Below, in pieces: positions 1 through 27,966 of a DNA stretch of 64,000 nt (the stretch's first letter is position 1; each line of letters opens with the position of its first letter). The stretch covers positions 10,853 to 74,852 of the forward strand of contig DDXO01000025.1 of NCBI GenBank assembly GCA_002347155.1, written 5' to 3'. Position numbers and translations under genes: made by a program. The DNA is from a candidate division WOR-3 bacterium UBA2258. GTDB lineage: Bacteria > Hydrothermota > Tepidihabitantia > Tepidihabitantales > Tepidihabitantaceae. A model generated the notes under the pieces. It made no database searches. It was given only the letters and a program-made list of their open reading frames with translations, and had not been told where the DNA came from.

Positions 1-771
1 ACTCTGCCCGGCCGAATCCACGTTGCTCTTCACCCGGCAGATCATCATCTTTGCGTCGGGCGCGACTCCGCACTGAGTACCCGCGCTCCCGTCGCTGGCA
101 ACCGTTCCGGCGGTATGCGTACCGTGACCGTGCTGGTCCATCGGGTCATTGTCGTTGTTCTCGAAATCCCACCCGTGGTGCGGGTAGTTCGCGTCGGTCC
201 AGAGGTGGTCGGCGAGGTCCGGGTGGGTGTAGTCGCACCCGGTGTCGATATGGCCGCAGACCACGCCCTGCCCGGTGTACCCCAGGGCCCAGACTGCCGG
301 GGCGTCTATCTTGTCAACGCCCCAGGTTATCTCCTCGGTGCCCTCGTTCTGCTGCTCCGGTTCCGGCAGATCCGGGCAGTGCACCCGGTCATAATCTACG
401 TAGCTTGCCTCGGGCCGTTCCGCGAGTTGCTGGATGACCGCCGGCGTCGCCTCACAGTACACCGCGTTCACAACCCAGAACGTCTGGACGTTCTGTGCGT
501 CAGTAGAGGCCAGATACGCGAGTAAGCCGGCCTGCTGCTCGGCGGAGTACTCCCGCAGAATCCGTGCCACTTCCGCGCGGCGCTGGGGCCTGGGCATGCC
601 GTCAACCAAGCTGTTGAGCAGGTCCCGGTCGAACTGCTCCTCCAGCACGACGTGCACCGGCAGTCGCTCGTCTGCCTGTGCCTTGGTCAGGCGCTGCTGC
701 AACTCCGGGCCGATCAGCGCTAAGCTCATTCCGGCCAGCACCAGCACCAATATCACGACCATTCTCGTCAC
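1..771 (-). CDS. Subtilisin-like serine protease (peptidase S8), N-terminal part; 3' end runs off the left window edge
   Basis: Absent from the ORF track because there is no stop in the window. Reverse translation from GTG at 771 (GGAGG 5 nt upstream) gives a signal-like VTRMVVILVLVLAGMSLAL. It then shows GHIDTGCDYTHPDL (catalytic Asp motif) and HGHGTHTAGTVA (catalytic His motif). The frame stays open to base 1. Confidence 0.85.
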   Translation of the reverse strand, partial: MTRMVVILVLVLAGMSLALIGPELQQRLTKAQADERLPVHVVLEEQFDRDLLNSLVDGMPRPQRRAEVARILREYSAEQQAGLLAYLASTDAQNVQTFWVVNAVYCEATPAVIQQLAERPEASYVDYDRVHCPDLPEPEQQNEGTEEITWGVDKIDAPAVWALGYTGQGVVCGHIDTGCDYTHPDLADHLWTDANYPHHGWDFENNDNDPMDQHGHGTHTAGTVASDGSAGTQCGVAPDAKMMICRVKSNVDSAGQS

Positions 772-1026
772 TAATACCTCCGTGGTTATCGCGCCTGCCG
801 TCTCAGTGCAGAACCGCGGCCGGTTCGCTGCTCGCCGGACGCAGCTTCCTTAGTGCAATTGTAGCCATCGCGTGAGGCAAGTCAACGGCACGAGGAAGAG
901 GAGGCCGAATGAGGCTGAAGCTCCGGTCTGGAATTGCCGCAGGGCGACCGCATCGCGAGCGGAGTCAGGACTTGACCAGTCACTCTAACGTCCGGCTTCG
1001 GATTTGACGTCTGAGGCTGGCATTGA

Positions 1027-1054
1027 TTGACAATCCGGGCCTTTTCGCTATCGT
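1027..1054 (+). promoter_or_regulatory. Putative sigma70-type promoter of the rpsP operon
   Basis: TTGACA (1027-1032), 16 nt spacer, TATCGT (1049-1054). It lies about 25 nt upstream of the rpsP TTG start, which has a GAGGAG Shine-Dalgarno. Confidence 0.45.
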
Positions 1055-1079
1055 ATAGTTCCACAATGAGGAGAAAACC

Positions 1080-1421
1080 TTGCTCAGAATTCGATTAAGG
1101 CGTATGGGACTTCGGAACCGGCCCGCCTACCGGGTCGTCGTCATTGACTCGCGCAAGGCGCGCGACGGCGAGTACCTGGAGTCGGTCGGCCACTATGACC
1201 CGCGAACGAAGCTGCTGGAGTTGAAGACCGAGCGCATCGGGCACTGGGTCGCCAAGGGCGCCCAGACCTCGGACACGGTCGGCCGGCTCTTGAGCCGCTA
1301 CGCGCGGCAGCACGCGCCCGCGGCCGAAGTCGTGAACGGCGACAGCACGGCGGCACCCGTATCGACCGAGCCGGTTACCACATCCAAGGATGCGACACCC
1401 CCGGACACACCTAAGGAGTAG
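1080..1421 (+). CDS. rpsP: 30S ribosomal protein S16
   Basis: MLRIRLRRMGLRNRPAYRVVVIDSRKARDGEYLESVGHYDP is a typical S16 N-terminus. TTG start with SD. There is an A/P/T-rich C-terminal tail. Confidence 0.95.
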   Translation: MLRIRLRRMGLRNRPAYRVVVIDSRKARDGEYLESVGHYDPRTKLLELKTERIGHWVAKGAQTSDTVGRLLSRYARQHAPAAEVVNGDSTAAPVSTEPVTTSKDATPPDTPKE

Positions 1422-1424
1422 GCC

Positions 1425-1655
1425 ATGAAAGAGATGATCGAGCACATCGTGAAGGCGCTCGTCGACCACCCCGACCAGATCAAGGTTACCGAACTCGCCG
1501 GCGAGCGCACGCTTACCTACGAAGTCAAGGTCATGGCGGGCGACCAGGGCAAAGTGATCGGCCGGCAGGGCGCAACCATCGACGCGATCCGGGCGATTGT
1601 CCGCGCCGCTGCCCGCAAGCTCGACAAGCACGCCACGATCGACGTAATCGGCTAG
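1425..1655 (+). CDS. KH-domain RNA-binding protein (YlqC/UPF0109 family)
   Basis: 76 aa with VIGRQGATIDAIRAIV (GXXG KH motif). It occupies the usual position after rpsP. Confidence 0.85.
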   Translation: MKEMIEHIVKALVDHPDQIKVTELAGERTLTYEVKVMAGDQGKVIGRQGATIDAIRAIVRAAARKLDKHATIDVIG

Positions 1656-1687
1656 ACGGTCCGCGGACTCAAGCGCCATCACGACCA

Positions 1688-2422
1688 ATGCAGGCAGCCG
1701 TCATTACGTTGTTCCCCGACTACTTCCGCGGCCCGTTCGAATGCGGGCCGACGCGGGTCGCGCGGGCTGACGGCAAGCTCGCACTCAGTTTCGTCAATCC
1801 CCGGGACTTCACAAGCGACGCCCATCGCACCGTCGATGACTATCCGTTCGGAGGCGGCGCCGGCATGGTGATGAAGCCCGAGCCGCTCTCCGCCGCAATC
1901 GAGAGCGTGCGCCGGCCCACAAGTCTGGTCGTACTTCTAACGCCGCAGGGCGAGCGCTTCACCCAGCCGCTGGCCGAGGAACTCAGCCACGCCGACCATC
2001 TGGTGCTCGTCTGCGGCCGTTACAAGGGCGTCGACGAGCGCGTCCGCACACTGGTCGACCGCGAGGTCTCTGTCGGCGACTACGTGCTTGCCGGCGGTGA
2101 AGCGGCGGCCGTCGTCGTCATCGAGGCCGTTGCCCGGCTCCTACCCGGCGCGGTCGGCGACGAGGATTCGGTCGCGACCGATTCGTTCTCGGCCGGCATC
2201 CTCGACGCCCCCTACTACACGCGGCCGCGCGAGTTCCGCGGCCTCGAAGTACCGGAAGTTCTGGTGTCCGGCGACCATGCTTCGGTCGCCCGCTGGCGCC
2301 GGGAACAGGCTTTGAAAACAACCGCCCGACGCCGGCCTGAACTGCTGCGCAACGAGGTCCTGAGCGAATCCGAGCGCGAGTTCCTCTGCCGCGAACTTGA
2401 AAAGGAGACTATCAATGGCTAA
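1688..2422 (+). CDS. trmD: tRNA (guanine37-N1)-methyltransferase
   Basis: [30 protein letters not shown] and [13 protein letters not shown] are TrmD hallmarks. Confidence 0.95.
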
Positions 2423-2813
2423 GAAGGAAGCTGCCAAGGAAGCGAAAGCTGCCGCACCGGTTCGGCACGAGCCGGCCGAAATCCCGCCGCTCCGGCCCGG
2501 CGACACAGTCGCAGTCCACGTGCGAATCGTCGAGGGCGACAAGGAACGCATCCAGCTATTCCAGGGCACAGTCATCCAGATCCGCGGCGCCGGCCAAAAC
2601 AAGAGCTTCACGGTCCGCAAGGTGAGCCGTGGCTACGGTATCGAGCGCATTTTCCCCTACGACACGCCGGCCGTGGCCAAAGTCGAAGTCAAGCGTCACG
2701 GCAAAGTCCGCCGGGCCAAGCTCTACTATCTCCGCGGCCGGAGTGGCCGCGAGGCGATGCTGCACGAGCAGCGGAGTGAGGAACAACCTCGACCGGGAAC
2801 TGTGGCAGAGTAG
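2415..2813 (+). CDS. rplS: 50S ribosomal protein L19
   Basis: [32 protein letters not shown]...[16 protein letters not shown] matches L19. ATG at 2415 follows AAGGAG. The ORF-track start at 2397 is probably too early. Confidence 0.93.
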
Positions 2814-3384
2814 CACCCTCTTCTGCGGAGTAGACGAGGTGGGAAGAGGGGCTTTGGCCGGCCCGGTCGTGGCCGCCGCGGTTATCCTCCCACCGCACAC
2901 CGAGATTGACGGTGCGGACGATTCCAAGAAACTGACTCCCAACCGCCGCCTCGAACTGGAGGTGGAAATCAAGCGGCGCGCCCTGGCCTGGTCCGTCTCC
3001 GGCGCCAACCACCGCTATATCGAACTGCACAACATCGCCAACGCCGCGTTCCATGCCATGCGAACCGCGGTGGGACGGCTCAGCATCCAACCGGCGCTCG
3101 TGCTGGCCGACGGATTCGCGATTCCGGACATCGACATTCCCTGCCAGGGCATCATCGGCGGCGACGGAAAGAGCCTTTCCATCGCCTGTGCCTCAATCAT
3201 CGCCAAGGTCTTCCGCGACCGACTGATGACGAAGATGGCCGACTGCTATCCCGGGTACAGCTTCGAACGCCACGTCGGCTACGGCACCGCCGAGCACCTG
3301 CGGGCCTTGCGCGAGCTCGGCCCGTCCCCCATCCACCGCCGCACTTACGCGCCTATCCGCGAACTGACCGCGGCAAACCCGTGA
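2776..3384 (+). CDS. rnhB: Ribonuclease HII
   Basis: [27 protein letters not shown] and [14 protein letters not shown] are RNase HII motifs. The GTG start at 2776 was chosen because the upstream part of the ORF overlaps rplS. The exact start is uncertain. Confidence 0.88.
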
Positions 3385-3731
3385 AGCCCAAACCGCTGGG
3401 CCGAAGAGGAGAGGACCTGGCGGCATCGCACTTCCGAGGCATGGGCTGGGAAGTCCTCGAACGCAACTACCGGACCCGGCTCGGCGAAATCGACCTTGTC
3501 TGCCGTGACCACGACACCATCGTCTTCGTCGAGGTCAAGACCCGCACCAGCGCTGATATCGCCCGCCCCGACCAGTCGGTCACGCAGCGCAAACAGGCCA
3601 AGCTGCGCCGGCTGGTGGAGGAATACCTGGTAAAGCACAACCTCGAGTCGTCGGACGTGAGGTTCGACGTTCTCGGCGTCACGCTGGGAGACAGGCGCCC
3701 GGAGTACGAACACATCGCGGGAGCGCTCTAG
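3381..3731 (+). CDS. yraN: YraN family endonuclease (UPF0102)
   Basis: GRRGEDLAASHFRGMGWEVLERNYRTRLGEIDLVCRD..IVFVEVKTR. The GTGA start overlaps the rnhB stop. Confidence 0.85.
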   Translation: MKPKPLGRRGEDLAASHFRGMGWEVLERNYRTRLGEIDLVCRDHDTIVFVEVKTRTSADIARPDQSVTQRKQAKLRRLVEEYLVKHNLESSDVRFDVLGVTLGDRRPEYEHIAGAL

Positions 3732-5272
3732 TGCTGTCGCGCGTACTCTCGGCCTCGACCTTCGGCGTGGACGGCTACATCGTCACCGTCGAGACGGACA
3801 TCACCCACGGCCTCTCAGCCTTCAACATCGTCGGCCTGCCCGACGCCGCGGTCAAGGAATCGCAGCACCGGGTCCAGGCCGCGGTCAAGAACTCAGGGTT
3901 CAACTTCCCCAACCGCAGGATTACGGTCAACCTCGCGCCGGCCGACGTGAAGAAGGAAGGCCCGGGCTTCGACCTGCCGATGGCGGTCGGCATCCTTGCC
4001 GCCGCCGGCACAATCCAGCCGGGACCGCTCCGCGACCTCGGATTCCTCGGCGAACTCTCGCTCGACGGCTCGCTCCGGCCGGTCAAGGGCGCGGTCTCGA
4101 TGGCGGTGGCCGCCAAGCAGGCCGGCCTGCGGGGACTCGTGGTCCCCACCCAGAACGCGACCGAGGCAGCGATGGTCGAAGACCTGCCGGTCTACGCCGT
4201 GAGCTCGCTCATCGAGGCGGCCAACTTCGCCAACGGCGTCGCCGCGATTGAACCCACGCACACCGACGTCGCCGCGCTCTTCGCCCAGGCCGCGATTCAG
4301 CCCGTGGACCTCTCGGAGGTCCACGGCCACGAGCACGCCAAGCGCGCGCTCGAAATCGCGGCTGCCGGTGGCCACAACGCCTTGATGATCGGCCCGCCCG
4401 GCTCGGGCAAAACCATGCTCGCACGCAGGCTTCCGACCATCCTGCCGCCGATGACTTTGAACGAAGCCCTGGAAGCGACCCGAATCCACAGCGTGGTCGG
4501 CACGCTCTCGCCCAACCGGCCCCTGGTGGCGGTGCGGCCGTTCCGCTCTCCGCACCACAATGTCTCGGAATCAGGCGCCATCGGCGGCGGCACGGTTCCG
4601 CGTCCGGGCGAGGCCTCGCTTGCCCACAACGGTGTCCTCTTCCTTGACGAGCTCCCCGAGTTCCGGCGCGATGTGCTCGAGGCGCTCAGACAGCCGCTTG
4701 AAGACGGCGAGGTGACCATCGGCCGGGCCCGCTCGACCTTCACATTCCCGGCCCGGTTCATGCTGATCTGCGCCATGAATCCGTGTCCCTGCGGGTTCTC
4801 CGGCGACCCCCGCCACTCCTGTTCCTGCTCGCCGCCCAAAGTTCGCCACTACCGCAGCAAGATCTCGGGCCCTCTGCTCGACCGCATCGACATCCACATC
4901 GAGGTGCCGGCGCTCAAGTACGACGACATCTCGAACAGGCGGTCCGGCGAAGGCTCGAGCGCGGTCGCCGCGCGGGTGGCGAAGGCCCGCCGCACCCAGC
5001 TTGCCCGGTTTGCCTCGACCGGCACGCGCCACCCGGTATACTCCAACGCCCAGATGGGACCGCAGCTCATCCGCCGCTTCTGTCCGGTTTCCGCCCAGAG
5101 CGACGAAATCCTCCGGGCCGCAATAGACCGGCTCGGGCTCTCTGCCCGCGCCTACCACCGCGTGCTCAAAGTCGCCCGGACCATCGCCGACCTGGAGGGC
5201 AAGGAGAGTATTCAGCCTTCCCACATCACCGAGGCGGTCCAGTACCGCACGCTGGACAGAACGGCGTGGTGA
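3731..5272 (+). CDS. comM: YifB/ComM family Mg-chelatase-like ATPase
   Basis: 513 aa. It has an N-terminal Lon-like domain, Walker A GPPGSGKT, LFLDELPEF, and a C-terminal Mg-chelatase subunit ChlI-like region. Confidence 0.9.
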   Translation: MLSRVLSASTFGVDGYIVTVETDITHGLSAFNIVGLPDAAVKESQHRVQAAVKNSGFNFPNRRITVNLAPADVKKEGPGFDLPMAVGILAAAGTIQPGPLRDLGFLGELSLDGSLRPVKGAVSMAVAAKQAGLRGLVVPTQNATEAAMVEDLPVYAVSSLIEAANFANGVAAIEPTHTDVAALFAQAAIQPVDLSEVHGHEHAKRALEIAAAGGHNALMIGPPGSGKTMLARRLPTILPPMTLNEALEATRIHSVVGTLSPNRPLVAVRPFRSPHHNVSESGAIGGGTVPRPGEASLAHNGVLFLDELPEFRRDVLEALRQPLEDGEVTIGRARSTFTFPARFMLICAMNPCPCGFSGDPRHSCSCSPPKVRHYRSKISGPLLDRIDIHIEVPALKYDDISNRRSGEGSSAVAARVAKARRTQLARFASTGTRHPVYSNAQMGPQLIRRFCPVSAQSDEILRAAIDRLGLSARAYHRVLKVARTIADLEGKESIQPSHITEAVQYRTLDRTAW

Positions 5273-5278
5273 GGACAC

Positions 5279-5422
5279 CAATGACGAAGTCCGAAGTTCG
5301 GAGCCCGATTGAAACCCGAATGAGTCGCAATGTCCAATTCGAACTCCGGGTTTCGTGCTTCATTCGTCATTCGAGCTTCGGACTTCGAGCTTCCCCCACA
5401 CTCATTCGTCATCCGTGCTTCT
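5279..5422. repeat. Heptad-phased degenerate repeat array forming an imperfect inverted pair (dispersed family member)
   Basis: TTCG recurs at 5363, 5370, 5377, 5384 and 5391 (CATTCGT CATTCGA GCTTCGG ACTTCGA GCTTCCC). The left arm 5281-5304 is the reverse orientation (CGAA at 5285 and 5292). A T6 tract follows at about 5435. Confidence 0.8.
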
Positions 5423-5532
5423 AGCCCCGGGCTTTTTTGAGACCTCAATTCACGACCCTTGCGTCGAATATCGGTCTTTGTACACTTTGACCAGTTTGCG
5501 TACCACTATCAGGGCATAAGAGGAGCTACCAT

Positions 5533-6846
5533 ATGGACCTGGCTAACAAAATCCACGACCGAAAAGCGAAGGTTGGCGTCATCGGCATCGGCTACGTCGG
5601 CCTGCCCCTGAGTATCGAGATCGCCCGCGCCGGATTTGAGACCGTCGGCATCGACATCGACAAAGCCAAAGTCGAGGCGGTGCGCAAGGGCAAGAGCTTC
5701 ATCGGCGACGTCAAAGACGCAGAACTCGCTGAGGTCAGAGGCAAGTTCACAGCCACGACGAACTTCAAGGCCCTCGCCACCTGCGACATCGTGAACATCT
5801 GCGTACCAACCCCGTTCACCCCCTCGAAAGACCCGGACGTCACCTACATCGAAGAGGCGGGCCGCCAGGTCGCGAAGTACTTCAAACCCGGCCAGCTCGT
5901 GATCCTCCGCTCTACGACCTACCCCGAGACCACCGAGAAGGTACTCCAGCCCGTTCTCGAAAAGAACGGCCGCAAGGTCGGCCGCGACTACTACCTTTCC
6001 TTTGTACCCGAACGCATCGACCCGGGCAACCACAAGTTCAACACGCGGACCACGCCCGTCGTGGTCGGCGGCGTCACCAAGGCCTGCACCGACCTCACGG
6101 TCGATTTCTACTCCCGGTTCGTCGAGCGGGTCATCCCGGTCTCCTCGCCCCGCGTCGCCGAGATGTCCAAGCTGCTTGAGAACATCTTCCGCAGCGTCAA
6201 CATCGCCCTTGTCAACGAGATGGCGAAGATGTGCGAACGGATGGGCAACATCGACATCTGGGAAGTCATCAACGCGGCCTCGTCCAAGCCCTTCGGCTAC
6301 ATGCCCTTCTACCCCGGGCCCGGCATCGGCGGCCACTGCATTCTGATTGACCCCTACTACCTTGCCTGGAAGGCCCGCGAATATGACTTCCACTCCGACT
6401 TCATCGAGCTTGCGGCCGAGACCAACGAGTCAATGCCCTTCTACGTCGCCGACCGCATAGTTGAAACCCTGGGCACAAACGGCGTCGCCGCATCCGAGGC
6501 CAGACTCCTGATTCTCGGCGCCGCCTTCAAGGGCAACGTCGAAGACACGCGCCACTCTCCGGCCATCAAGGTGATGGAGCTCACCCAGGACAAAGTCAAG
6601 AGCATCGTCTACCATGACCCCTGGGTACCGGAGATTCACGTCAACGGCGGCAAATTCAAGTCAGTGCCGCTGACCGCGAAGGCGCTCCAGACCGCCGACT
6701 GCGTCGTCGTCTTAACCGACCACAAGTGCTTCGACTACGACTTCATCTTCGAACACAGCCGGCTGATTCTCGACGCCCGCAACGCCATCAAGCGCCGCGG
6801 CTCCCGGAAGCTGTTCACGCTCGGCAACCGCCCGGCCAGGCGCTGA
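5533..6846 (+). CDS. Nucleotide-sugar dehydrogenase (UDP-glucose/GDP-mannose dehydrogenase family, WbpA/WecC-like)
   Basis: N-terminal Rossmann motif VGVIGIGYVGLPLS. Family-typical GGHCI active-site region (PGPGIGGHCILID). 437 aa, with an AAGAGGAG SD. Confidence 0.85.
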   Translation: MDLANKIHDRKAKVGVIGIGYVGLPLSIEIARAGFETVGIDIDKAKVEAVRKGKSFIGDVKDAELAEVRGKFTATTNFKALATCDIVNICVPTPFTPSKDPDVTYIEEAGRQVAKYFKPGQLVILRSTTYPETTEKVLQPVLEKNGRKVGRDYYLSFVPERIDPGNHKFNTRTTPVVVGGVTKACTDLTVDFYSRFVERVIPVSSPRVAEMSKLLENIFRSVNIALVNEMAKMCERMGNIDIWEVINAASSKPFGYMPFYPGPGIGGHCILIDPYYLAWKAREYDFHSDFIELAAETNESMPFYVADRIVETLGTNGVAASEARLLILGAAFKGNVEDTRHSPAIKVMELTQDKVKSIVYHDPWVPEIHVNGGKFKSVPLTAKALQTADCVVVLTDHKCFDYDFIFEHSRLILDARNAIKRRGSRKLFTLGNRPARR

Positions 6847-6951
6847 CCGCCTTCGGCCGTCCGCCTCTCGGGACTCCTAACTTGTCCAGGACGTGGGCAG
6901 CTCAGCCGCACTTGTCCAGAATCCGGAATCCAGTCGGCAATTCGCCGGTGC

Positions 6952-6980
6952 TTGACAGACAAGGAAGACGGATGTCTAAT
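6952..6980 (+). promoter_or_regulatory. sigma70-type promoter of surface-protein paralog 1
   Basis: TTGACA, 17 nt spacer, TCTAAT. Almost identical blocks occur at 10036-10064 and 11679-11707. Confidence 0.65.
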
Positions 6981-7096
6981 CAGATTGATGGAATCGGGTA
7001 ATCGTAGCCCGGTGACCATCCCGGCATCCGGCAGCAACGGGAGGCCTGCTGGATGCTGCAGCAGAGATGCAGCCTCCAACTAGCAAAGGAGAGCAG

Positions 7097-9913
7097 ATGC
7101 CTAAGAAGGTGGCAGTCCTGACAACCATCGTCGCGATGCTCGCCGCGACCGGCTTAGCGAGCACCACGACCACCGCGGCCACACCGGCGCCCGGTCCGGC
7201 GGTGCCGGCGGCGCAGAGGACAAGCCCGGTGCCGGCGATGCAGACATCGGTAACGGGAAACACCGGCCGTCCTATCATCCAATGGGACAAGTTCTACGAT
7301 AGAAACGGCAATCCGCTGCCGGGCGGCCCGCAAGAAGGTGTTGCCCCCGACTCGCTCTACTGGAAGGACTTCAACAGCACCACGTACTTGAAGTCGTCGG
7401 CCAAGGTCCAGAGTCCTTCTCCAGCCAACCGCACTGCGATGTCGTTCCACGACGCCCAGTCCACGGTCTGCATGGACCCGTATGGGAACTATGTCTATGA
7501 GGTAAACGGCACCAATCTGTACCGGTTCAGCACGGTTGACGGCTCGATGACCACGTACACCCTGTCGTACTCGGGCGGGCTGGGATGCGCAACCGACGGT
7601 CAGTACATCTACCGCCCGGACGGGACGACGATGTACAAGTACACGATGACCGGCTCCTACGTCAACTCAACCACGACTGACTACTCTTGCGATGCGTATT
7701 CGGTATCGTGCTGCCGTGATACGGTCTGGTTCACAGACGACCGGTACAACGGAGTGAACATCTACGGCTATGCCTGTTCCAAGTTCACCGGCGGCAGCAT
7801 CACCCACGATGCCACGTGGAACGTCGGCACCGGCACCCTCGGCGTCGGCAACATCGCCTGGGACGGCGAGTACTTCTACCTGGCATGGATCGGCACCAGC
7901 CCCATCACGTTCAAGCGGTTCTACTCGGACAGAACGCTCTATTCGACCGGCACCGTGAGCATCGACCCGCGCAGCGTGATGTGTGCCGTGCCCTACCGAC
8001 GACAGGTGACGCAGGATTCACTCTACTGGAAGAGCTACTACAGCACCTCTCTCATCTACTCATCACCCAAAGCCCAGGATGTGACCCCGGCCCAGGCAAC
8101 TCCTTCTCCCTGGCAGTACGACCAGTCCCTGTCGTGCATGACCCCGGACGGCCACTTCCTTTTCGAGGTATACGGCACGAACCTGCGGCGAACCGACCTC
8201 TGGACCGGCGCGGTGAACAACTACACCCTGGCCGATGCCAGCGGCGGCGCATGTGGAACGGACGGTGAGTACGTCTACATCCCGAAAGGCACGACGACGC
8301 GCAAATACACGCTGGACGGGACCCTGATCAGCACGACCACGACTGACTACGCGCCGTGGGTGGACGCCAGCACCTTCGGCTTCGGAGTTGCCAACGACAC
8401 GGTCTGGCTCACCCCTGCCGAGGATGGCACGACCTGGTACGGCTATACCTGTTCGAAGTTCACCGGCGGCAGCATCACCCACGATGCGACGTGGACCACG
8501 GGCGGCGGCTCCGCTGCTGCTATGAGCGTGACCTACGACGGTCAGTACTACTACATGACCTGGGGCGGCTACGGCTCCAACACGTTCCGGCGTTTCTACC
8601 GTGACCGGACGCTCTTTTCGAGCGGCACCGTCAACCTCGACCCCCGGGGCGTGATGTGCGAGGCGGTGTGTCCGCTGATGATTGTGACTACCGACCTTCA
8701 GACCTACCGGACCGACTTGGCCGAGACCCTCAGGGTCGCGAGCGGCGGGACACTCGACCTTATCGGCACCCTCAGCTTGGACGTGAACGCGACATTCCCG
8801 GCAACCGCGTGGTACAACGACGGGTGCCGCGTGATACTTGAGTTCTCCGGCTCTCCCATTCCCGCCACGCCTGCTCTCATCGGTGACAGCCTGGCCAGGT
8901 TCGTCGACCTCGGCGGACGAGTTGTGACTGCGACGTGGGCCGACCAGATAGGCAACCTTGCCGGCCGCTACGTGGACCAATACATGCCGTTCACGATGCA
9001 GCCTCAGGCTGGCGTCGGGGGCACGATGAGCACGGTGCACAACCCGCTCCATCCGATAATGGACGGAGTGACCGCGCTGGCGGTGGACAACTACTTGACC
9101 GGCAACACGCACACTACACTGCGCAGCCCGAACTGCGTCTGTCTGGCCGAGTGGGACAGCAACAACCGCTCGGTCGCCGCCTACCTGGACAGCGCGGGCG
9201 TGCGGCTGGTATCTGTGGGCTTTGTACCGTTCAAGAATTGGTCCGGAGCCACTGGCCAGTGGGCGAGGCTCCTGGTCAATGCGATTCTCTGGGTCTGGCC
9301 GGGTATGCCAGCCGTCGGCGTAACCGCACCCGACACCGGTGACGTCTGGGTCGTCGGAACATCGCAGGACATCACGTGGACCGCGGCCAACGGGCCGATC
9401 ACCAAGGACTCGATTGTCTACAGCAACGACAACGGCGCGACCTGGAACTTCCTCGACAAGAACACTGGCTCGCGGACCAGCTACACCTGGAACCCGATAC
9501 CCAACACACCGAGCACGGACTGCTACGTCCGGGTATTCACCTGGAACGCAGTCGGGACGGGCTTCGGTACGTCCGGTAAGTTCGAAATCCAAGTGGGTGG
9601 CGGCATCGAACAGCCCGAGAACAACGCCCTGCCGCTCGCCTTCGCCCTGTACCAGCCCTACCCCAACCCGTCGGCTTCAGGCACACAAGTCCGCTACGCC
9701 CTGCCGCGCCCGGCCCGGGTCGAACTGCACGTCTACGACGTGACCGGCGCGCTGGTGCGTCGCCTCGTCGAAGGCACGCAGCCGGCCGGGTACCAGCACG
9801 CCTACTGGAACGGGTGCGACGACCGCGGCCGAGCTGTCGCGCCCGGCGTCTACTACTGCCGCTTCAAGTCTGGCGACTACGTCGCCACGCAGAAACTGGT
9901 CGTGCGCAGATAA
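7097..9913 (+). CDS. Secreted surface protein with T9SS-type C-terminal sorting domain (paralog 1 of 3)
   Basis: Start at ATG 7097 after AAAGGAG, with signal peptide MPKKVAVLTTIVAMLAATGLA. There are two copies of a roughly 230 aa Cys/Trp/Tyr-rich module, then a roughly 200 aa domain shared with paralog 2, then an Ig-like domain. The tail YQPYPNPSASGTQVRYALP...VELHVYDVTGALVRRL...GVYYCRF is typical of Por/T9SS CTDs. Confidence 0.85.
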   Translation: MPKKVAVLTTIVAMLAATGLASTTTTAATPAPGPAVPAAQRTSPVPAMQTSVTGNTGRPIIQWDKFYDRNGNPLPGGPQEGVAPDSLYWKDFNSTTYLKSSAKVQSPSPANRTAMSFHDAQSTVCMDPYGNYVYEVNGTNLYRFSTVDGSMTTYTLSYSGGLGCATDGQYIYRPDGTTMYKYTMTGSYVNSTTTDYSCDAYSVSCCRDTVWFTDDRYNGVNIYGYACSKFTGGSITHDATWNVGTGTLGVGNIAWDGEYFYLAWIGTSPITFKRFYSDRTLYSTGTVSIDPRSVMCAVPYRRQVTQDSLYWKSYYSTSLIYSSPKAQDVTPAQATPSPWQYDQSLSCMTPDGHFLFEVYGTNLRRTDLWTGAVNNYTLADASGGACGTDGEYVYIPKGTTTRKYTLDGTLISTTTTDYAPWVDASTFGFGVANDTVWLTPAEDGTTWYGYTCSKFTGGSITHDATWTTGGGSAAAMSVTYDGQYYYMTWGGYGSNTFRRFYRDRTLFSSGTVNLDPRGVMCEAVCPLMIVTTDLQTYRTDLAETLRVASGGTLDLIGTLSLDVNATFPATAWYNDGCRVILEFSGSPIPATPALIGDSLARFVDLGGRVVTATWADQIGNLAGRYVDQYMPFTMQPQAGVGGTMSTVHNPLHPIMDGVTALAVDNYLTGNTHTTLRSPNCVCLAEWDSNNRSVAAYLDSAGVRLVSVGFVPFKNWSGATGQWARLLVNAILWVWPGMPAVGVTAPDTGDVWVVGTSQDITWTAANGPITKDSIVYSNDNGATWNFLDKNTGSRTSYTWNPIPNTPSTDCYVRVFTWNAVGTGFGTSGKFEIQVGGGIEQPENNALPLAFALYQPYPNPSASGTQVRYALPRPARVELHVYDVTGALVRRLVEGTQPAGYQHAYWNGCDDRGRAVAPGVYYCRFKSGDYVATQKLVVRR

Positions 9914-9937
9914 GCACCGACCGGCAGCCAAATCACA

Positions 9938-9959
9938 GGGGCGGGCTTCGGCCCGCCCC
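9938..9959 (+). terminator. GC-rich stem-loop terminator after paralog 1
   Basis: GGGGCGGGC-TTCG-GCCCGCCCC: perfect 9-bp stem with a TTCG tetraloop, 25 nt after the stop. Confidence 0.6.
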
Positions 9960-10035
9960 GCCTTCATCCACACTCAACCCTCCACCTCCGGTATTGCACA
10001 TTGCACATTCCACGTTCTTTTCACGTAGTCAGACC

Positions 10036-10064
10036 TTGACAGACAGGGAAGACGGATGTCTAAT
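10036..10064 (+). promoter_or_regulatory. sigma70-type promoter of surface-protein paralog 2
   Basis: TTGACA, 17 nt spacer, TCTAAT. This is a duplicated cassette. Confidence 0.65.
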
Positions 10065-10181
10065 GAAGTTGATAAGACTCGGCGGTCATGGCCCAATGTC
10101 CGCACTCCGGCATCCGGCTGCAAGGGAGGCCGGCCGGATGCCACAGAAGCAGTGACGCCTCCCGCCAACGAAGGAGAACAG

Positions 10182-11564
10182 ATGCGCATGCGCCAGAAGG
10201 TGGTAGTTCTGACAGCTCTTATCGCGATGTTGTCGGGCGTGAACCATGCGAACACCAGCCCAGCGATTGGTGACGCCCGAAACGTGAAAGGCAGGGGTTG
10301 CGGCAGCAAAGTCATGGTATGCCATGCCGCGTTCTATCGCGACACGGTCGCAACCCTGTGCCAGATGCTTGTCGACTCATCCGACGGCAGGTTCACCTCG
10401 GCCGACACATACTACATCGGCAGCGGCGGGCACACCACCTTCCCGGTTACTGACTGGTACAACCAGGGCTGTCGGGCGATCCTGGCGTTCACGGAATACC
10501 CTCCGGCGGATACGACCGCGCTCGGCGACAGCCTTGGCCGCTTCATCCAACTGGGCGGTGGCGTGGTTGAGGCGGTGTTCGCGGACTGCACCCCCAATCA
10601 AATCAAGGGAGCCTGGCGCTCAACGTATGCTCCTTTCAGGGTCTCGTCACCATCCGGCACTCCGGGCTCAATGGGCACGGTCCGCCAGCCTTTCCACCCG
10701 ATGATGTCGGGCGTATCCGCAATCAGCGTGGGCGGCTTCCGCACCGGGAACAACAACGGCTCGCTCCGTGGCCCCAACTGCGTCAGCCTGGCCGAGTACA
10801 CAGATGCCGGGCTCTGCCTCGCCGCATGCTTCGACAGCGCCGGCGGGCGCGCCGCCTCCCTCGGCCTGTTCCCGCTGACCTACTGGCAGTCATCCGCCTC
10901 CGGCCAGTGGTGCCGGCTGATCGTGAACGCGCTGGACTGGACTGCGGTCGGGCCGAGCGTGGGCGTAACCGTGCCCAACGGCGGTGAGACCTGGCACGCC
11001 GACTCGGTCTACAACATCACCTGGACCCAGACCGACAACGGAGTCAAGGACTCGATATACTACTCGACCAACGGCGGATCGAGCTGGACCGGCGTGGCCT
11101 TTCTCGCCACGCCGCCGGCCCCGCTCCAGTACGCCTGGACCGTACCGGCCACCCCGACCACGCGGGCCCGGGTCAAGGTTGTAACCTGGAACGAAGACGA
11201 CGGCAGAGTCGAGGACGCAAGTAACGCCAACTTCACCATCGGGTCGTCCGGCGGCATCGAACAGCCCGAGAACAAAGCCCTGCCGCTCGCAATCGCCCTG
11301 TACCAGCCCTACCCCAATCCGCTCGCAACCGGTACCCAGCTACGCTACGCACTGCCGCTCCAGGCCCGGGTCGAACTCCACGTCTACGACGTGACCGGCG
11401 CGATGGTGCGTCGCCTCGTGGAAGGCACGCAGCCGGCCGGGTACCAGCGCGCCTACTGGAACGGCTGCGACGACCGCGGCCGGACTGCCGCGCCCGGCGT
11501 CTACTACTGCCGCTTCAAGGCCGGCGACTTCCAGGCAACGCAGAAACTGGTCATGCACAGATAA
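10182..11564 (+). CDS. Secreted surface protein with T9SS-type C-terminal sorting domain (short paralog 2 of 3)
   Basis: ATG 10182 after GAAGGAG, with signal peptide MRMRQKVVVLTALIAMLSG. It lacks the duplicated N-terminal modules but shares the central domain, the Ig-like domain and the CTD with paralogs 1 and 3. Confidence 0.85.
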   Translation: MRMRQKVVVLTALIAMLSGVNHANTSPAIGDARNVKGRGCGSKVMVCHAAFYRDTVATLCQMLVDSSDGRFTSADTYYIGSGGHTTFPVTDWYNQGCRAILAFTEYPPADTTALGDSLGRFIQLGGGVVEAVFADCTPNQIKGAWRSTYAPFRVSSPSGTPGSMGTVRQPFHPMMSGVSAISVGGFRTGNNNGSLRGPNCVSLAEYTDAGLCLAACFDSAGGRAASLGLFPLTYWQSSASGQWCRLIVNALDWTAVGPSVGVTVPNGGETWHADSVYNITWTQTDNGVKDSIYYSTNGGSSWTGVAFLATPPAPLQYAWTVPATPTTRARVKVVTWNEDDGRVEDASNANFTIGSSGGIEQPENKALPLAIALYQPYPNPLATGTQLRYALPLQARVELHVYDVTGAMVRRLVEGTQPAGYQRAYWNGCDDRGRTAAPGVYYCRFKAGDFQATQKLVMHR

Positions 11565-11587
11565 ACACAGACCGGCAGCCAAATCAC

Positions 11588-11609
11588 GGGGCGGGCTTCG
11601 GCCCGCCCC
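11588..11609 (+). terminator. GC-rich stem-loop terminator after paralog 2
   Basis: The same GGGGCGGGC-TTCG-GCCCGCCCC hairpin, followed by GCTTTCGC. Confidence 0.6.
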
Positions 11610-11678
11610 GCTTTCGCTCACACTCTACCCTCCACCTACGGTATTGCACATTCCACGTTCTTTTAACGTAGTCAGACC

Positions 11679-11707
11679 TTGACAGACAGGGAAGACGGAT
11701 GTCTAAT
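11679..11707 (+). promoter_or_regulatory. sigma70-type promoter of surface-protein paralog 3
   Basis: TTGACA, 17 nt spacer, TCTAAT. This is a duplicated cassette. Confidence 0.65.
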
Positions 11708-11823
11708 GAAGTTGGTAAGACCCGTTTGTCATGGCCCAATGTTCGCTCTTCGGCATCCGGCTGCAATGGAGGCCAGCCGGGTGCAGCGGCAGGCGTGACG
11801 CCTCCAGACACTAAGGAGGATAG

Positions 11824-14637
11824 ATGCAAGAGAAGGTGGTAGTTCTGGCAGTCCTGGTCACGATGCTGGCGACGTTCGGCTTCGCGACCACCAACAACCT
11901 GATCCCGGTGCCGGCTCTCGACCCGGTCACCCGGCCCGCCCGGCCGCCCGCGGTCCGGATCCCGGACCACGACAACACGTCTCGTCCGGTCGTTCACTGG
12001 GACAGGTTCTATGACACAAACGGCAACCCCGTGTCCACCGACCCGCAGGACAACGTCGGCGCTGACTCCCTCTTCTTCAAGCGGTACAGCGTGACCGACA
12101 CCCTTTATGGCTGCCCCAAGTCGCAGGTCCCGAACCCGTCACCGACGGCCTGCCGTACCGGATTTGCGTTTCTCGATGGTCAGACCCGGATCGGCATGGA
12201 CCCGGCCGGGACCTATCTCTACGAAGTGAACGGAACCTCGCTGTGCCGACACAACACCAGCACTGGGACCTACGTGTACTTCACTATCACCAACGGCAAC
12301 TCCGCCTGCCGCACCGACGGCAACTACCTGTACGTACCGGTAGGCGACGTCGTCTACCGTTACACCCTGACAGGTAGCCTGGTCAGCCAGACAACGCTCA
12401 ATATCACTCCCAATCAATGGAACTTCTCGCTCGCCAACGACACGGTATGGTGTGGCACCGACTCCATACTCCACGGCTACGCCTGCTCGAGATTCACCGG
12501 TGGCTCGATATCTGAAGACGCCACATGGAACGTCGGTACCGGCAGTTCTGCCCCCGCGTTTGTGACCTGGGACGGGCAGTACTACTACGTTGCCTGGAGC
12601 GGCTTCAGCAGCAACACATTCAAGCGGTTCAACGCCAATCGGACCCTGTCAGCCAGCGGTACAGTGAGCACCGATCCGCGCGGCTTGATGTGCACGGTCC
12701 GAGGCACGCGGCCGACGACGCAGGACTCACTCTACTGGAAGCTCTTCTCCAGCGCGACCAACCTCTACTCGTCGCCCAAAGCCGAGAGCGTGACTGCGGC
12801 CCAGCCGACGCCGTTTGCCTGGCAGTACACTCAGGCCGTGTCGTGCATGACCCCGGACGGCCACTACGTGTTCGAGGTGAACGGGACCAACATGCGGCGC
12901 ACCGACCTCATGACCGGCGCGGTGAACAACTACACCCTTGCCGATGCCAGCGGCGGTGCATGCGGAACTGACGGCGAGTACGTCTACGTCCCAAATGGGA
13001 CCACAACTCGGAAGTACTCCCTTACCGGGACGCTGGTTAGCTCTACCACGACTGACTACGCGCCGGCGGTCGGGGTCAGCACGTTCTGCTTCGGCGTTGC
13101 GAACGACACGGTCTGGATTTCACCCACCCTCCCCGGCGCGACCTGGTACGGCTACGCCTGCTCGAAGTTCACCGGCGGCAGTATCACGCACGATGCGACC
13201 TGGTCTACGGGCGGTGTGCAAAACTCAGCGATGACCGTTACCTGGGACGGCCGGCACTACTACATGGTCTGGGGCGGACAAGGCACCAACACGTTCAAGC
13301 GCTTCTACCGCGACCGGACCCTCTTCTCCGACGGAACCGTGACCGGCGACGCCCGGAGCGTCATGTGCAGGAAGGGCGACTACGCGGTGATGGTCTGTCA
13401 CGGCGAACCGGATACCGCGAACGTAACGAGTTTCCGACAACTGCTGGTTGACTCCGGCGGAACGAGGTTCGCCGCTGTTGATACCTACGACATCAGTACA
13501 GGCGGGCACGCCGCCTTCCCGGCGACTGACTGGTACAACCAGGGCTATCGGGCAATACTGACGTTCACCAACGATAACCCCGCGGATTCGGCCGCCCTGG
13601 GCGACAGCCTCGCCCGTTTCGTCCAACTAGGTGGCGGCGTGGTCGAGGCCGTGTTCGCCGACCAGACCGACAACTGCATCACGGGCGACTGGCGCTCCGG
13701 CTTCGCTCCGTTCACCGTACAGAGCACAGAGTATTCCGCAGGCTCGATGGGCACGGTCCACCAGCCGCTCCACCCGATCATGTCGGGAGTCACCGAACTC
13801 GCAACCGACAACTACCGCACGGGCAACACCCCCGGCACCCTGCGCAGCCCCAACTGCATCAGCCTAGCCGAGTACACGGACGCCAATCGCTGCCTCGCCA
13901 CGTGCTTCGACAGCGCCGGCCGGCGCGCTGCCTCCCTCGGCATGTTCCCGCTCACCTACTGCTACACGACGATTACCGGACAGTGGCTGCGCCTGCTGGT
14001 GAACGCCATCAACTGGGTCGCGGTCGGGCCCAGCATCGGCGTAACCGCGCCCAACGGCGGTGAAACCTGGAACGGCGGCTCGGTTCACAATATCACTTGG
14101 ACCCAGACCGACAACGGGGTCAGTGACTCAATCTACTACTCGACCGACGGAGGCGCGAGCTGGATCGGCGTGGCCCACTACCCCACGCCGCCCGACCCCC
14201 TCCAACACGCCTGGACCGTACCAAACACCCCGACGACCCAGGGCAGGGTCAAAGTCGTGACCTGGGATGAGAACGGCGGCCGGGTCGAGGACATAAGTGA
14301 CGCCGACTTCACCATCCCGGCGGTCGGCATCGAGCAACCCCGGAAGGACGCCCTGCCGCTCGCCTTCGCTCTATTCCAACCCTACCCCAACCCGTCAGCC
14401 TCAGGCGCACAAGTCCGCTACGCCCTGCCGCGCCCGGCCCGGGTCGAACTCCACGTCTACGACGTGACCGGCGCGCTGGTGCGTCGCCTCGTGGAAAGCA
14501 CGCAGCCAGCCGGGTACCGACGAGCCTACTGGAACGGCTGCGACGACCGCGGCCGGACTGCCGCGCCCGGCGTCTACTACTGCCGCTTCAAGGCGGGCGA
14601 CTTCCAGACCACGCAGAAGATGGTCGTGCGCAGATAG
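11824..14637 (+). CDS. Secreted surface protein with T9SS-type C-terminal sorting domain (paralog 3 of 3)
   Basis: 937 aa with the same architecture as paralog 1. TAAGGAGG SD, signal peptide and a conserved CTD. Confidence 0.85.
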   Translation: MQEKVVVLAVLVTMLATFGFATTNNLIPVPALDPVTRPARPPAVRIPDHDNTSRPVVHWDRFYDTNGNPVSTDPQDNVGADSLFFKRYSVTDTLYGCPKSQVPNPSPTACRTGFAFLDGQTRIGMDPAGTYLYEVNGTSLCRHNTSTGTYVYFTITNGNSACRTDGNYLYVPVGDVVYRYTLTGSLVSQTTLNITPNQWNFSLANDTVWCGTDSILHGYACSRFTGGSISEDATWNVGTGSSAPAFVTWDGQYYYVAWSGFSSNTFKRFNANRTLSASGTVSTDPRGLMCTVRGTRPTTQDSLYWKLFSSATNLYSSPKAESVTAAQPTPFAWQYTQAVSCMTPDGHYVFEVNGTNMRRTDLMTGAVNNYTLADASGGACGTDGEYVYVPNGTTTRKYSLTGTLVSSTTTDYAPAVGVSTFCFGVANDTVWISPTLPGATWYGYACSKFTGGSITHDATWSTGGVQNSAMTVTWDGRHYYMVWGGQGTNTFKRFYRDRTLFSDGTVTGDARSVMCRKGDYAVMVCHGEPDTANVTSFRQLLVDSGGTRFAAVDTYDISTGGHAAFPATDWYNQGYRAILTFTNDNPADSAALGDSLARFVQLGGGVVEAVFADQTDNCITGDWRSGFAPFTVQSTEYSAGSMGTVHQPLHPIMSGVTELATDNYRTGNTPGTLRSPNCISLAEYTDANRCLATCFDSAGRRAASLGMFPLTYCYTTITGQWLRLLVNAINWVAVGPSIGVTAPNGGETWNGGSVHNITWTQTDNGVSDSIYYSTDGGASWIGVAHYPTPPDPLQHAWTVPNTPTTQGRVKVVTWDENGGRVEDISDADFTIPAVGIEQPRKDALPLAFALFQPYPNPSASGAQVRYALPRPARVELHVYDVTGALVRRLVESTQPAGYRRAYWNGCDDRGRTAAPGVYYCRFKAGDFQTTQKMVVRR

Positions 14638-14660
14638 CCGCCGACCGGCACTCAAATCAC

Positions 14661-14682
14661 GGGGCGGGCTTCGGCCCGCCCC
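14661..14682 (+). terminator. GC-rich stem-loop terminator after paralog 3
   Basis: GGGGCGGGC-TTCG-GCCCGCCCC followed by GCTTTCTT. Confidence 0.65.
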
Positions 14683-16120: not shown

Positions 16121-16187
16121 CCGCCGGCGGCGGCGAGTGACCAGGTAGCAGTTCGCAGGTTGCAGGTGCCGGACGCGGCCGAGCGAG

Positions 16188-16661: not shown

Positions 16662-16778
16662 TGGCGGTTCGTTGTCGGCGATTGAAGATTACCGGTTCGG
16701 GCTCGACCTCATCCGGTTCCGAGGAGTGGGGCGACACCGCCCGACATTCGCCACTCGGCTCTCGTCATTGGGCGATGT

Positions 16779-17705: not shown

Positions 17706-17950
17706 CGTCGGACGCGTTACGGACAGAATCAGCCCCAGTAGAACACTAACGTTCAGTAGTCCCCTCCCTGTCAGACGGAATGCCTTCGGGCAGAGCCGCG
17801 ACCGACGCGGCCGTTCGACTCGGTTTGGTACCTGCGACTCGGAGGTGCACCAGATTCACCTTACCGAACTGTGGTGCGCCGGTCAAGCAACGCCCGGGTG
17901 TCGGCCTCGTCTCCCGGCTTGTGCCGGCCGACCCGAGATCCCGAGCACCC

Positions 17951-27882: not shown

Positions 27883-27966
27883 GTATGTCAAAGGTAGCGG
27901 ACGCCTGCCGCATGTCAAACCTCACCGGGGCAAGACATCTCAGCCTCTCGTCTGTATAATGGTCAT

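Follow-up and report, generated by a model that had tools for sequence, protein, structure and literature searches.

Heptanucleotide tandem arrays at gene boundaries of a WOR-3 bacterium: candidate arms of palindromic elements of the intervening-sequence type

The stretch of DNA analyzed here (the window) comprises 64,000 nt of contig DDXO01000025.1 from the candidate division WOR-3 bacterium UBA2258 and carries a dispersed set of short tandem arrays of 7-nt units. Transfer to the window of the genes called on the source contig, with their Pfam labels, followed by inspection of every spacer, confirmed the location of these arrays at gene boundaries put forward in a preliminary description of the sequence, with a minority of arrays lying in frame inside genes. 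No tRNA or tmRNA genes were found in the window, a search of its whole length against Rfam at gathering thresholds returned zero family matches, rRNA included, and a literature search with the array sequences themselves yielded nothing relevant. One pair of complementary arrays encloses a gene for a four-helix-bundle protein, and we propose here that the arrays may be parts and remains of a widespread family of palindromic elements akin to the intervening sequences (IVS) of 23S rRNA, most of them without an open reading frame (ORF).

The 7-nt phase of the arrays is strict, as had been claimed. Self-match frequency, scored lag by lag over the 6.6 kb of non-coding DNA in the window, peaks at lag 7 (0.312, against a non-coding baseline of ~0.26 and 0.260 in coding DNA) and shows harmonics at lags 14 (0.292) and 21 (0.281), and coding DNA presents a period-3 pattern only. 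Defining arrays by a minimum of 14, 15 or 16 lag-7 matches per 21-nt window, we detected 13, 10 and 7 intergenic arrays, respectively, versus 0.25, 0.05 and 0.01 in dinucleotide shuffles, an excess of about 50-fold, and the same criterion applied to lags 5, 6, 8, 9, 10 and 11 gave 0-1 intergenic arrays. Across the whole window, at 16 or more matches out of 21, lag 7 accounts for 14 regions, lag 14 for 8, lag 12 for 3 and most other lags for 0-2, and Tandem Repeats Finder (TRF) lists these arrays in 19 rows of period 7 and several of period 14. Either the lag-7 scan or TRF detected every locus of the preliminary description, with a weak signal at 38683-38777 and a split one at 62366-62552, where the lag-7 scan flags the left arm only and TRF the right arm only (as period 14); the 8-mer variant it mentioned is also genuine (period 8, 4.2 copies and 96% matches at 36328-36361 in TRF). 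Locus 5279-5422 has the same sequence, base for base, in two other, independent assemblies (L001 and L002, one of them from Logan and one from ENA) and hence is not an assembly artefact, a possibility that had been raised for checking. The arrays consist of tandem 7-nt units in mainly non-coding locations and belong to the class of heptanucleotide tandem repeats, known as long simple sequence repeats (long SSRs, LSSR) or short tandemly repeated repetitive (STRR) sequences. The initial remark that no described class was known must be corrected, since these repeats, the arrays of Geobacter and Xanthomonas and the stem of the Coxiella IVS are on record. Cores are indeed variable, but less diverse than first thought: several loci share TTCGnnn, AAGGACn, CCAGTnn or GAAGnnn units, which are also found in other phyla. 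The arrays are not CRISPR, as already stated, because their units are contiguous and 7 nt long, as opposed to repeats of 23-50 nt with unique spacers.

Two arrays that had been listed apart (35331-35369 and 35801-35832) are real, but turned out to be the two arms around a single gene (Table 1). Besides its PF05635 label, this gene matches TIGR02436 (E 2.5e-20), and the closest solved structure to its product is PDB 2RLD (E 1.8e-12); PF05635/TIGR02436 is the protein family encoded in 23S rRNA IVS. Residue 23 of the 139-aa ORF is the first one covered by the family match, and the likely start is accordingly a GTG inside the left array. In a 521-nt RNA of the complete element the arms are paired across ~430 nt, with a folding z-score of -4.5, and the minimum-free-energy fold pairs 35335-35373 with 35793-35835. 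The element (35336-35833) is located between protein-coding genes, not in helix 25 or 45 of a 23S rRNA, and is of the IVS type by structure, with terminal inverted repeats forming a long stem and a PF05635/TIGR02436 ORF in the loop.

The association between gene and arrays extends well beyond the window. We gathered 23 loci bearing a PF05635 gene: one from the window, three selected by sequence pattern, six through protein homologues, ten on plasmids and three on viral contigs. Those not picked for their arrays comprise two obtained by exact-protein look-up, four further homologues, the three viral contigs and the ten plasmids, which come from Planktothrix, Nostoc, Anabaena, Chondrinema, Chlorohelix, Bernardetia, Euhalothece, Pseudanabaena and Treponema (Cyanobacteriota, Bacteroidota, Chloroflexota and Spirochaetota). 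Tandem arrays flank the gene on both sides in 23 of 23 loci, across at least eight phyla as well as plasmids and viral contigs. Lag 7 is the top-scoring lag among lags 4-12 in 40 of the 46 flanks and in both flanks at 18 of the 23 loci; it leads in one flank only at four others (L143, L153, L186 and L188), and L185 has mixed 7/9-nt units. Arm-to-arm duplex energies range from -42 to -119 kcal/mol at the 14 loci for which they were computed. As a control, 50 kb of the Treponema plasmid contain five stringent period-7 arrays, all within 340 nt of the gene, and on the Euhalothece plasmid, of the four arrays within 50 kb, two flank the gene and the other two share the unit of the flanking ones. 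Homologues with 77-85% identity to the protein of the window have CCAGTnn arms as well, both where the context is syntenic and where it is not, which suggests that gene and arms form one unit moved between lineages. The protein is 60-76% identical in named matches from WOR-3, Parcubacteria, Planctomycetes and Microgenomates, with identities of up to 91% only among matches without a phylum label, and the gene occupies such positions as those between cas2 and cas1, between the adaptor and permease genes of a resistance-nodulation-division (RND) system, and between ftsW and murG. Protein identities across phyla and odd positions are signs of horizontal spread. At the cas2/cas1 site, on the Nostoc and Anabaena plasmids (L164/L165), the gene lies in opposite orientation; the ftsW/murG insertion, within the division and cell wall (dcw) cluster, spans 3001-3381 of the Microgenomates locus (L185, GCA_016188915).

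Most of the copies in the window lack an ORF, and six loci display a common design, with a purine-rich arm (R; units such as CGAATGA, CGAAGTC or AAGGACA), a loop of 40-75 nt and a complementary pyrimidine-rich arm (F; TCATTCG, GACTTCG or TTGTCCT units), at 5281-5422, 24030-24128, 51343-51485, 57790-57912, 59876-59993 and 62366-62552. All six inverted pairs run from R to F and none from F to R; the order reads identically on either strand, which makes it a feature of the element as such, independent of strand. That inverted pairs form long imperfect hairpins just past stop codons, as previously noted, is borne out at these loci to varying degrees, with folding z-scores of -4.0 (5270-5450), -3.3 (59870-60010) and -2.7 (57786-57915), and weaker ones of -1.9 (62340-62570), -1.4 (51340-51489) and -0.25 (24022-24139). 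Arrays in the window start 0-20 nt past a stop codon or include it: the distance is 9 nt for the comM-like gene, 3 nt for mnmG and 14 nt for efp, the TAA of the gene termed here orf699 falls within AAGGACTAA, and the TGA of the UDP-glucose dehydrogenase gene within CGCTGAC. At the other end, F-arms terminate 6-20 nt ahead of the next start codon at 34697, 51485, 24128 and 59993, the distance to the accC start being 6 nt for the element at 51343-51485, and the F-arm of 62366-62552 stops 6 nt short of a perfect TTGACA-16-TATAAT promoter at 62558. The F-arm of the first element reads TTCGTGC TTCATTC GTCATTC GAGCTTC GGACTTC GAGCTTC and is directly followed by a separate GC hairpin with a T-run (5424-5441). 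Judged by the two stretches scanned (1-20000 and 44001-64000), the arrays are not intrinsic terminators with a GC-rich stem plus T-run: none of the terminator-like sites there coincides with an array, and canonical terminators are not enriched (12, versus 12-13 in shuffles).

Table 1. Heptanucleotide arrays and related features in the window (R, purine-rich arm; F, pyrimidine-rich arm)
Feature	Position	Strand	Remarks
R-arm, AATGACG AAGTCCG AAGTTCG	5281-5304	+	9 nt past comM-like stop (5270-5272)
F-arm of 5281-5422 element, TTCGnnn units (CATTCGT, CATTCGA, GCTTCGG, ACTTCGA)	5345-5422	+	
CGCnnnC array across UDP-glucose dehydrogenase stop codon	6836-6880	+	
ATTGCAC x3 in duplicated terminator/promoter module	9993-10013	+	copy in paralogous module (11565-11823) shorter by exactly one unit
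GCAGnTn array in convergent-gene spacer, without partner arm	16141-16172	+	
GCCAGAA-type array in divergent glnA/mnmG spacer	21874-21902	+	
GAAGnnn array inside mnmG (gidA)	22434-22500	+	
R-arm (GAATGAC GAATCAA...), loop, F-arm (TTCGGAG TTCGAGC TTCGTGT)	24030-24128	+	fills spacer between mnmG and next gene; R-arm degenerate
CAGAAGn array in C-terminal tail of pseudouridine synthase (RluB-like) gene	27128-27178	-	
Solitary F-type array (CGTCATT x2, CGGACTT, CGTCCTT) in 64-nt operon spacer	34661-34697	+	reaches GGAGG before next start
Left arm of complete element, ACCAGTn x4	35336-35369	+	begins right past stop codon of upstream gene; holds likely GTG start (35357)
Four-helix-bundle protein gene, PF05635 / TIGR02436	35357-35776	+	in element loop
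Right arm of complete element, ACTGGnn x4	35796-35833	+	complementary to left arm
8-mer array CTCTGTCC x4, first ~20 codons of anti-sigma ORF	36313-36370	-	precedes zf-HC2 domain (residues 23-57)
Weak ACTGGAA/ACTGAGA and GTCAGnn arrays	38683-38777	+	first array is of the unit family of the complete element's right arm
TTCGnnn F-type array	48550-48597	+	stops 16 nt before TTGACA-16-TACCAT promoter-like site (48613)
Weak R-arm (AATGACA AGGCTCG AAGCTCG), loop, strong F-arm (CGTCATT x3, CGGACTT, CGAGCTT)	51343-51485	+	efp/accC spacer
R-arm (AAGGACn), loop, F-arm (CATTCGT x3, then TTGTCCT-type)	57790-57912	+	within orf699 reading frame
R-arm (AAGGACT AAGTACC AAGGACA AAGGACT), loop, TTGTCCT-type F-arm	59876-59993	+	R-arm includes orf699 TAA
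R-arm (CGAAGCT CGAAGTA CGAATGA...), 75-nt loop, F-arm (TCGTCATTCGAGCT x2)	62366-62552	+	divergent lspA/nnr spacer
AAGGACG-type array inside nnr	63229-63278	+	linker of YjeF_N and Carb_kinase domains

The same architecture, the search for which had been recommended, is present in other genomes. A scan of 185,579 species genomes with the pattern TCATTCGTCATTCGNNCTTCG (19 bases) returned at least 120 loci, compared with ~4 expected by chance in 596 Gb (an estimate that assumes equal base frequencies), and the matches listed include Verrucomicrobiota, Planctomycetota, Chloroflexota, Acidobacteriota, Cyanobacteriota, Bacteroidota, Gemmatimonadota, Lentisphaerota, WOR-3 and a bin of the candidate phyla radiation (CPR), so that CATTCGT-type units and the R-loop-F design occur in at least ten phyla. 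Among the 120 matches listed, neighboring arrays are in R-to-F order in 71 cases and in F-to-R order in none. Still among the matches listed, 78 of 130 cases have the best complement of the F-arm on its upstream side and 3 of 130 on its downstream side, the element starts at a median of 9-10 nt past the upstream stop codon, the well-formed arm is antisense in 24 cases and sense in 17, spacers are co-directional in 41 cases, convergent in 19 and divergent in 5 (by a rough ORF-based assignment), and no T-run follows the F-arms of the cross-phylum loci. Within one genome the arms are near-identical between copies and the loops differ in length and sequence. When relatives are oriented by gene strand, F-type arrays number 66 and R-type arrays 17. 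Long perfect heptamer arrays (CCACCAT x6, GACCTCT x9, CCCCAAA x3) adjoin some CATTCGT-type elements, at ~4700-4760 of L015 (the CPR bin), at 3562-3640 of L036 and in L089, and genomes with one heptamer unit family usually carry several.

Some arrays lie within protein-coding genes, orf699 being the clearest case. The ATG of this gene shares bases with the stop codon preceding it (GGAGGT-N7-ATGA), and an entire R-loop-F element is placed between this ATG and the conserved protein body, its R-arm encoding a charged stretch (MKGQSSKDKGQN) and its F-arm the hydrophobic CFVLCTLSFAL. The distance from ATG to body is a multiple of three in 13 of 13 orf699-related loci, with six lengths (120, 126, 132, 147, 156 and 171), and one relative (L135) is devoid of this element and has a short hydrophobic N-terminus in its place. 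Further period-7 stretches, CCTCCTC and TCCGTCC, appear at 59593-59639 and 59766-59818, in the C-terminal part of orf699 (57788-59887). In MnmG, a residue-by-residue alignment reveals that residues 107-132 stand in for four residues of the E. coli-type chain PDB 3cp2, a 22-aa in-frame insertion relative to the matched solved MnmG proteins that is coded by GAAGTCA GAAGCGA GAAGCTG GATGCTG GAAGTCA GAAGTGG and following units. Three heptamer units equal seven codons, and arrays can hence persist in frame within genes. The earlier assertion that the arrays inflate ORF N-termini is correct in that gene calls are distorted, but the retention of the orf699 frame in the 13 relatives and the in-frame insertion in MnmG indicate that array-encoded peptides are not always spurious. 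The tandem amidophosphoribosyltransferase (purF-like) genes at 28896-30335 and 30407-31837 share 78% DNA identity, and the first has a CCCTCGC-type period-7 stretch (30202-30246) just ahead of its conserved CxxCF motif.

Comparison with relatives provides a view of how the arrays change. In a second strain, which differs by 48 single-nucleotide polymorphisms (SNPs) over ~21 kb, arrays are unchanged in length, the sole indel being a 14-nt (two-unit) tandem duplication, CGCTGAC CGCTATC, at 6841 across the UDP-glucose dehydrogenase stop, and two paralogous promoter modules of the window differ by exactly one ATTGCAC unit (7 nt). No 7-nt indels were seen among the few closely related metagenome loci available. 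In relatives with 71-81% protein identity, hairpin elements are retained at both ends of orf699; for the hairpin at 59876-59993, seen in the window and six relatives (proteins 72-81% identical), the arms are nearly invariant and the loop is variable. In L127, L132 and L133, a mosaic of unrelated heptamer arrays in direct orientation, with no hairpin, takes up the orthologous spacer. From their retention in such relatives and near-identity between strains, the elements are judged to be old and altered by unit turnover, and not hypervariable at strain level.

Other repeats of the window were recorded in passing. One module (9914-10055, 11565-11823 and 14638-14702), consisting of CCGACCGGCAGCCAAATCAC and then a perfect GGGGCGGGC-TTCG-GCCCGCCCC hairpin, recurs behind each of three large paralogous proteins with FlgD_ig / Por_Secre_tail C-termini, and after the first two genes it extends into a shared promoter-like stretch (CTTGACAGACAGGGAAGACGG). 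Such C-termini may point to a bacterium of the FCB group or to a WOR-3-like one. A repeated motif of ~45 nt, GGACATGGTAGCGGCCGGGCACATCATGTCAAACG, lies upstream of minus-strand genes at 40400-40559, 42720-42917, 44884-45164 and 27883-27966 and corresponds on the minus strand to a TTGACA ... TACCAT promoter; three of its copies are in a lower-GC stretch at 38.6-48 kb with unannotated ORFs and SNase, TPR, AAA and HTH-Lon_C genes, which may be an island or defence region. At 47392-48700, a comparatively AT-rich non-coding stretch of 652 nt is followed by a called ORF of 211 aa (48044-48679, minus strand), without Pfam match and dense in 7-, 11- and 12-nt tandem repeats, that may not be a gene.

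Taken together, these results lead us to postulate, with a probability of roughly one half, that the arrays are arms, half-arms and decayed remains of widespread IVS-type palindromic elements, mostly without an ORF. The complete form would be a cassette of ~0.5 kb with complementary heptamer arrays around a PF05635/TIGR02436 gene, and the far commoner ORF-less forms, of 100-200 nt in R-arm, loop and F-arm order past stops and in intercistronic spacers, would fold into long imperfect hairpins in the transcript. ORF-less copies would descend from ORF-carrying ones, and the elements may be mobile now or have been so formerly. By analogy with rRNA IVS, the stems are probably substrates of RNase III, although here our confidence is lower than for the identity of the elements; cutting of the stem could make insertions tolerable inside operons and rRNA, and might also set mRNA ends or uncouple cistrons. 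Gain and loss of whole units (7n), of which two cases were seen, would account for the diversity of cores. Candidate reasons for the R-to-F order of ORF-less copies are that the purine-rich arm may serve a loop ORF, on whichever strand, with ribosome-binding and start signals, that AATGACG units place TGA in all three frames before the stem, and that a pyrimidine-rich 3' arm may weaken the RNA:DNA hybrid.

Several observations weigh against this interpretation, the foremost being quantitative. Only four four-helix-bundle genes are present in the ~1.07 Mb of the window and loci, versus hundreds of arrays, and a hidden Markov model built from homologues and run on six-frame translations of that DNA in search of gene relics recovered just these four intact genes, figures that tell against the putative descent of ORF-less arrays from ORF-carrying elements. 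The commonest units of the window, TTCGnnn and AAGGACn, are unlike the CCAGTnn arms of its complete copy, the arrays of locus L183 are direct instead of inverted, and the ORF-carrying Pseudanabaena locus has its arms in F...R order. Unpaired arrays at 34642-34705 (z +0.16) and 16121-16187 fold no better than shuffles. Elements that keep orthologous positions in relatives with 71-81% protein identity look vertically inherited and not mobile, no target-site duplication is recognizable between a filled and an empty site (L135 versus L130), and neither defined termini nor a transposase were found: no REP-associated tyrosine transposase (RAYT; REP, repetitive extragenic palindromic) or other transposase is annotated among the called and scanned genes of the window, and the only ORF associated with arrays is not a known transposase. 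Finally, none of the 28 pairs of the 59876-60004 stem exhibits compensatory changes in seven sequences, although with arms so conserved and without double changes, covariation neither supports nor opposes pairing.

The most serious competitor, which we nevertheless regard as unlikely, is that the arrays are plain heptanucleotide SSRs, neutral products of a bias of replication towards slippage by 7 nt that build up where constraint is weak, with the four-helix-bundle link being secondary. This explanation accommodates the many different units, the observed whole-unit indels, the presence of arrays in tolerant protein parts, the unrelated direct arrays without hairpin in the L127, L132 and L133 spacers and the documented over-representation of heptamers in many phyla. 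It also agrees with the weak consensus: an expectation-maximization search for one motif across pyrimidine-rich units gave information contents of 3.9 versus 3.4 +/- 0.21 and 3.28 versus 3.03 +/- 0.14 in nulls. Slippage has difficulty, however, with the strict R-to-F order (78 versus 3 and 71 versus 0 among the matches listed), with near-invariant arms around a variable loop in relatives at 72-81% protein identity, with identical units and architecture in at least ten phyla (at least 120 matches versus ~4 expected by chance), and with element starts ~10 nt past stops. Moreover, the in-frame insertion of 63 nt inside mnmG cannot grow by 7-nt steps, and in array-poor replicons arrays occur only at the four-helix-bundle gene.

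Somewhat less probable still is the suggestion that the arrays may be bound by a protein that covers 7 nt of single-stranded nucleic acid, be it a cold-shock protein (Csp), ribosomal protein S1 or the product of the four-helix-bundle gene, and that would tune translation or RNA structure where genes adjoin, the R-arm acting as a competing anti-sequence. CspB does bind heptanucleotides, one protein per heptamer, with a preference for pyrimidine-rich GTCTTTG/T and C at position 3 (PMC1904285), which the F-units GTCCTTT, GTCATTC and GACTTCG fit in part, and Csp or S1 was MacGregor's proposal for the TAACTGA repeats found upstream of starts. The F-arm ends 6-20 nt before four starts and the excess of F-type over R-type arrays in gene-oriented relatives (66 versus 17) point in the same direction. 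The weakness of any common motif, on the other hand, leaves a single sequence-specific binder unsupported, the well-formed arm is antisense as often as sense (24 versus 17 among the matches listed), and the arrays at 48550 and 62495 are upstream of promoters and so outside the transcripts of those promoters.

We consider improbable that the elements are host-selected 3' end elements unrelated to a mobile element, either (bidirectional) terminators devoid of a U-tract or REP-like stabilizers of mRNA. Starts ~10 nt past stops, the bias to convergent over divergent spacers (19 versus 5 among the matches listed), the lack of enrichment of canonical terminators in the window and an R-to-F order that puts a pyrimidine-rich 3' arm on both strands, where it might yield a weak RNA:DNA hybrid, would all be expected of such elements. 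They would not be expected to be trailed directly by another GC hairpin with a T-run, as at 5281-5422, to lack a T-run after the F-arm or to turn up in the gaps of tightly coupled genes, within ORFs and ahead of promoters, and both the 7-nt period and the gene association would be left unexplained. The earlier guess of a REP-like RNA structure comes close to the reading proposed here, except that the unit is not the palindrome that characterizes REP sequences. Phase-variable contingency tracts, in which unit gain and loss would switch neighbors such as orf699, are very improbable. In their favor, heptamer tracts underlie the phase variation seen elsewhere for neuO and the hmw promoters, Coxiella heptamer copy number differs by strain (PMC4990558) and one 14-nt indel falls at a stop codon here. 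Against them, the repeat units are imperfect, near-identical copies numbering no more than 2-4, no array differs between two or three assemblies (one of them the 48-SNP strain over 21 kb), relatives without exception keep the N-terminal region of orf699 in frame and the neighbors are mostly housekeeping genes, so that the slippage-prone tracts first suggested find little to recommend them.

Returning to IVS-type elements, a broader and more tentative proposal, which we hold to be possible but clearly less probable than the identity of the elements, is that the four-helix-bundle protein (S23p / Avd-like) is a dedicated partner that binds the arrays and drives their spread or maintenance, and that STRR sequences, long SSRs and IVS stems are the footprint of one ancient, horizontally transferred, non-transposase mobile family. 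To our knowledge, heptanucleotide repeats have no accepted origin or function, and we know of no role for the S23p family of 23S rRNA IVS, which is very widespread and found in odd locations. The association in 23 of 23 loci joins these two old puzzles in a concrete, testable hypothesis. In practical terms, arrays of this kind distort gene calls by extending N-termini, falsely or truly, and by giving rise to small ORFs that are spurious, add peptide segments to conserved proteins and break assemblies.

Among known systems, REP sequences and their composites (bacterial interspersed mosaic elements, BIME, and REP doublets forming hairpins, REPIN) resemble the window elements in being high-copy and extragenic, mostly inverted pairs forming hairpins near stops, with occasional intragenic copies and genome-specific sequence flavors. 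They differ in that a window arm is a direct array without a stem-loop of its own, the loop length is highly variable and the associated gene encodes a four-helix-bundle protein in place of a RAYT (Y1) transposase. On grounds of structure, REP classes with CGTC or GTAG tags were rejected; CGTC occurs within CGTCATT units and not as a terminal unpaired tag. Of the traits of miniature inverted-repeat transposable elements (MITE), namely terminal inverted repeats, a target-site duplication and a related autonomous insertion sequence with a transposase gene, inverted arms are seen here, and a target-site duplication is not recognizable in the comparison of L135 with L130. Rickettsia palindromic elements (RPE) are a palindromic family also inserted in frame in conserved protein genes, to which the in-frame copies in mnmG, in the nnr linker and at the orf699 N-terminus offer a parallel; their sequences are unrelated to the window arrays and lack heptamer periodicity. 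RPE are mentioned in PMC3733652.

The closest likeness is to the IVS of 23S rRNA in Coxiella burnetii and Leptospira. The Coxiella IVS is 428 nt long, with a 28-bp terminal inverted-repeat stem, an S23p (PF05635) ORF in its loop and two or three tandem GACAGAT heptamers, depending on the strain, just ahead of the ORF, and it is cleaved by RNase III at the first repeat (Warrier et al. 2016, PMC4990558). The element at 35336-35833 likewise combines a stem, a PF05635 loop ORF and heptamers at the ORF start, with the differences that its arms are wholly heptamer arrays, that most window copies have no ORF and that cleavage by RNase III, as in Coxiella, is here presumed by analogy. Heptanucleotide repeats, in turn, have been known since 1990, as STRR sequences, and were recognized in 2007 as the most over-represented class of long SSRs in many bacteria, with slippage as the proposed cause (Mrazek 2007); reports include cyanobacterial STRR sequences (Mazel 1990), GGGAATC (Rehm 2015), Geobacter arrays (Aklujkar 2009) and TAACTGA (MacGregor 2015), and inverted heptamer pairs have been noted in Xanthomonas and Geobacter. 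Like the window arrays, these are tandem, mostly intergenic near gene starts or ends, with several families per genome and a scattered phylogeny, but they have been treated as SSRs or regulator sites, and the fixed R-to-F order, the stop-codon adjacency and the four-helix-bundle link are unreported in the literature searched, the coverage of which is incomplete. Heptamer tandem arrays are thus in themselves a known but unexplained class, and what is new here, as far as can be told, is their fixed architecture and consistent association with the IVS protein.

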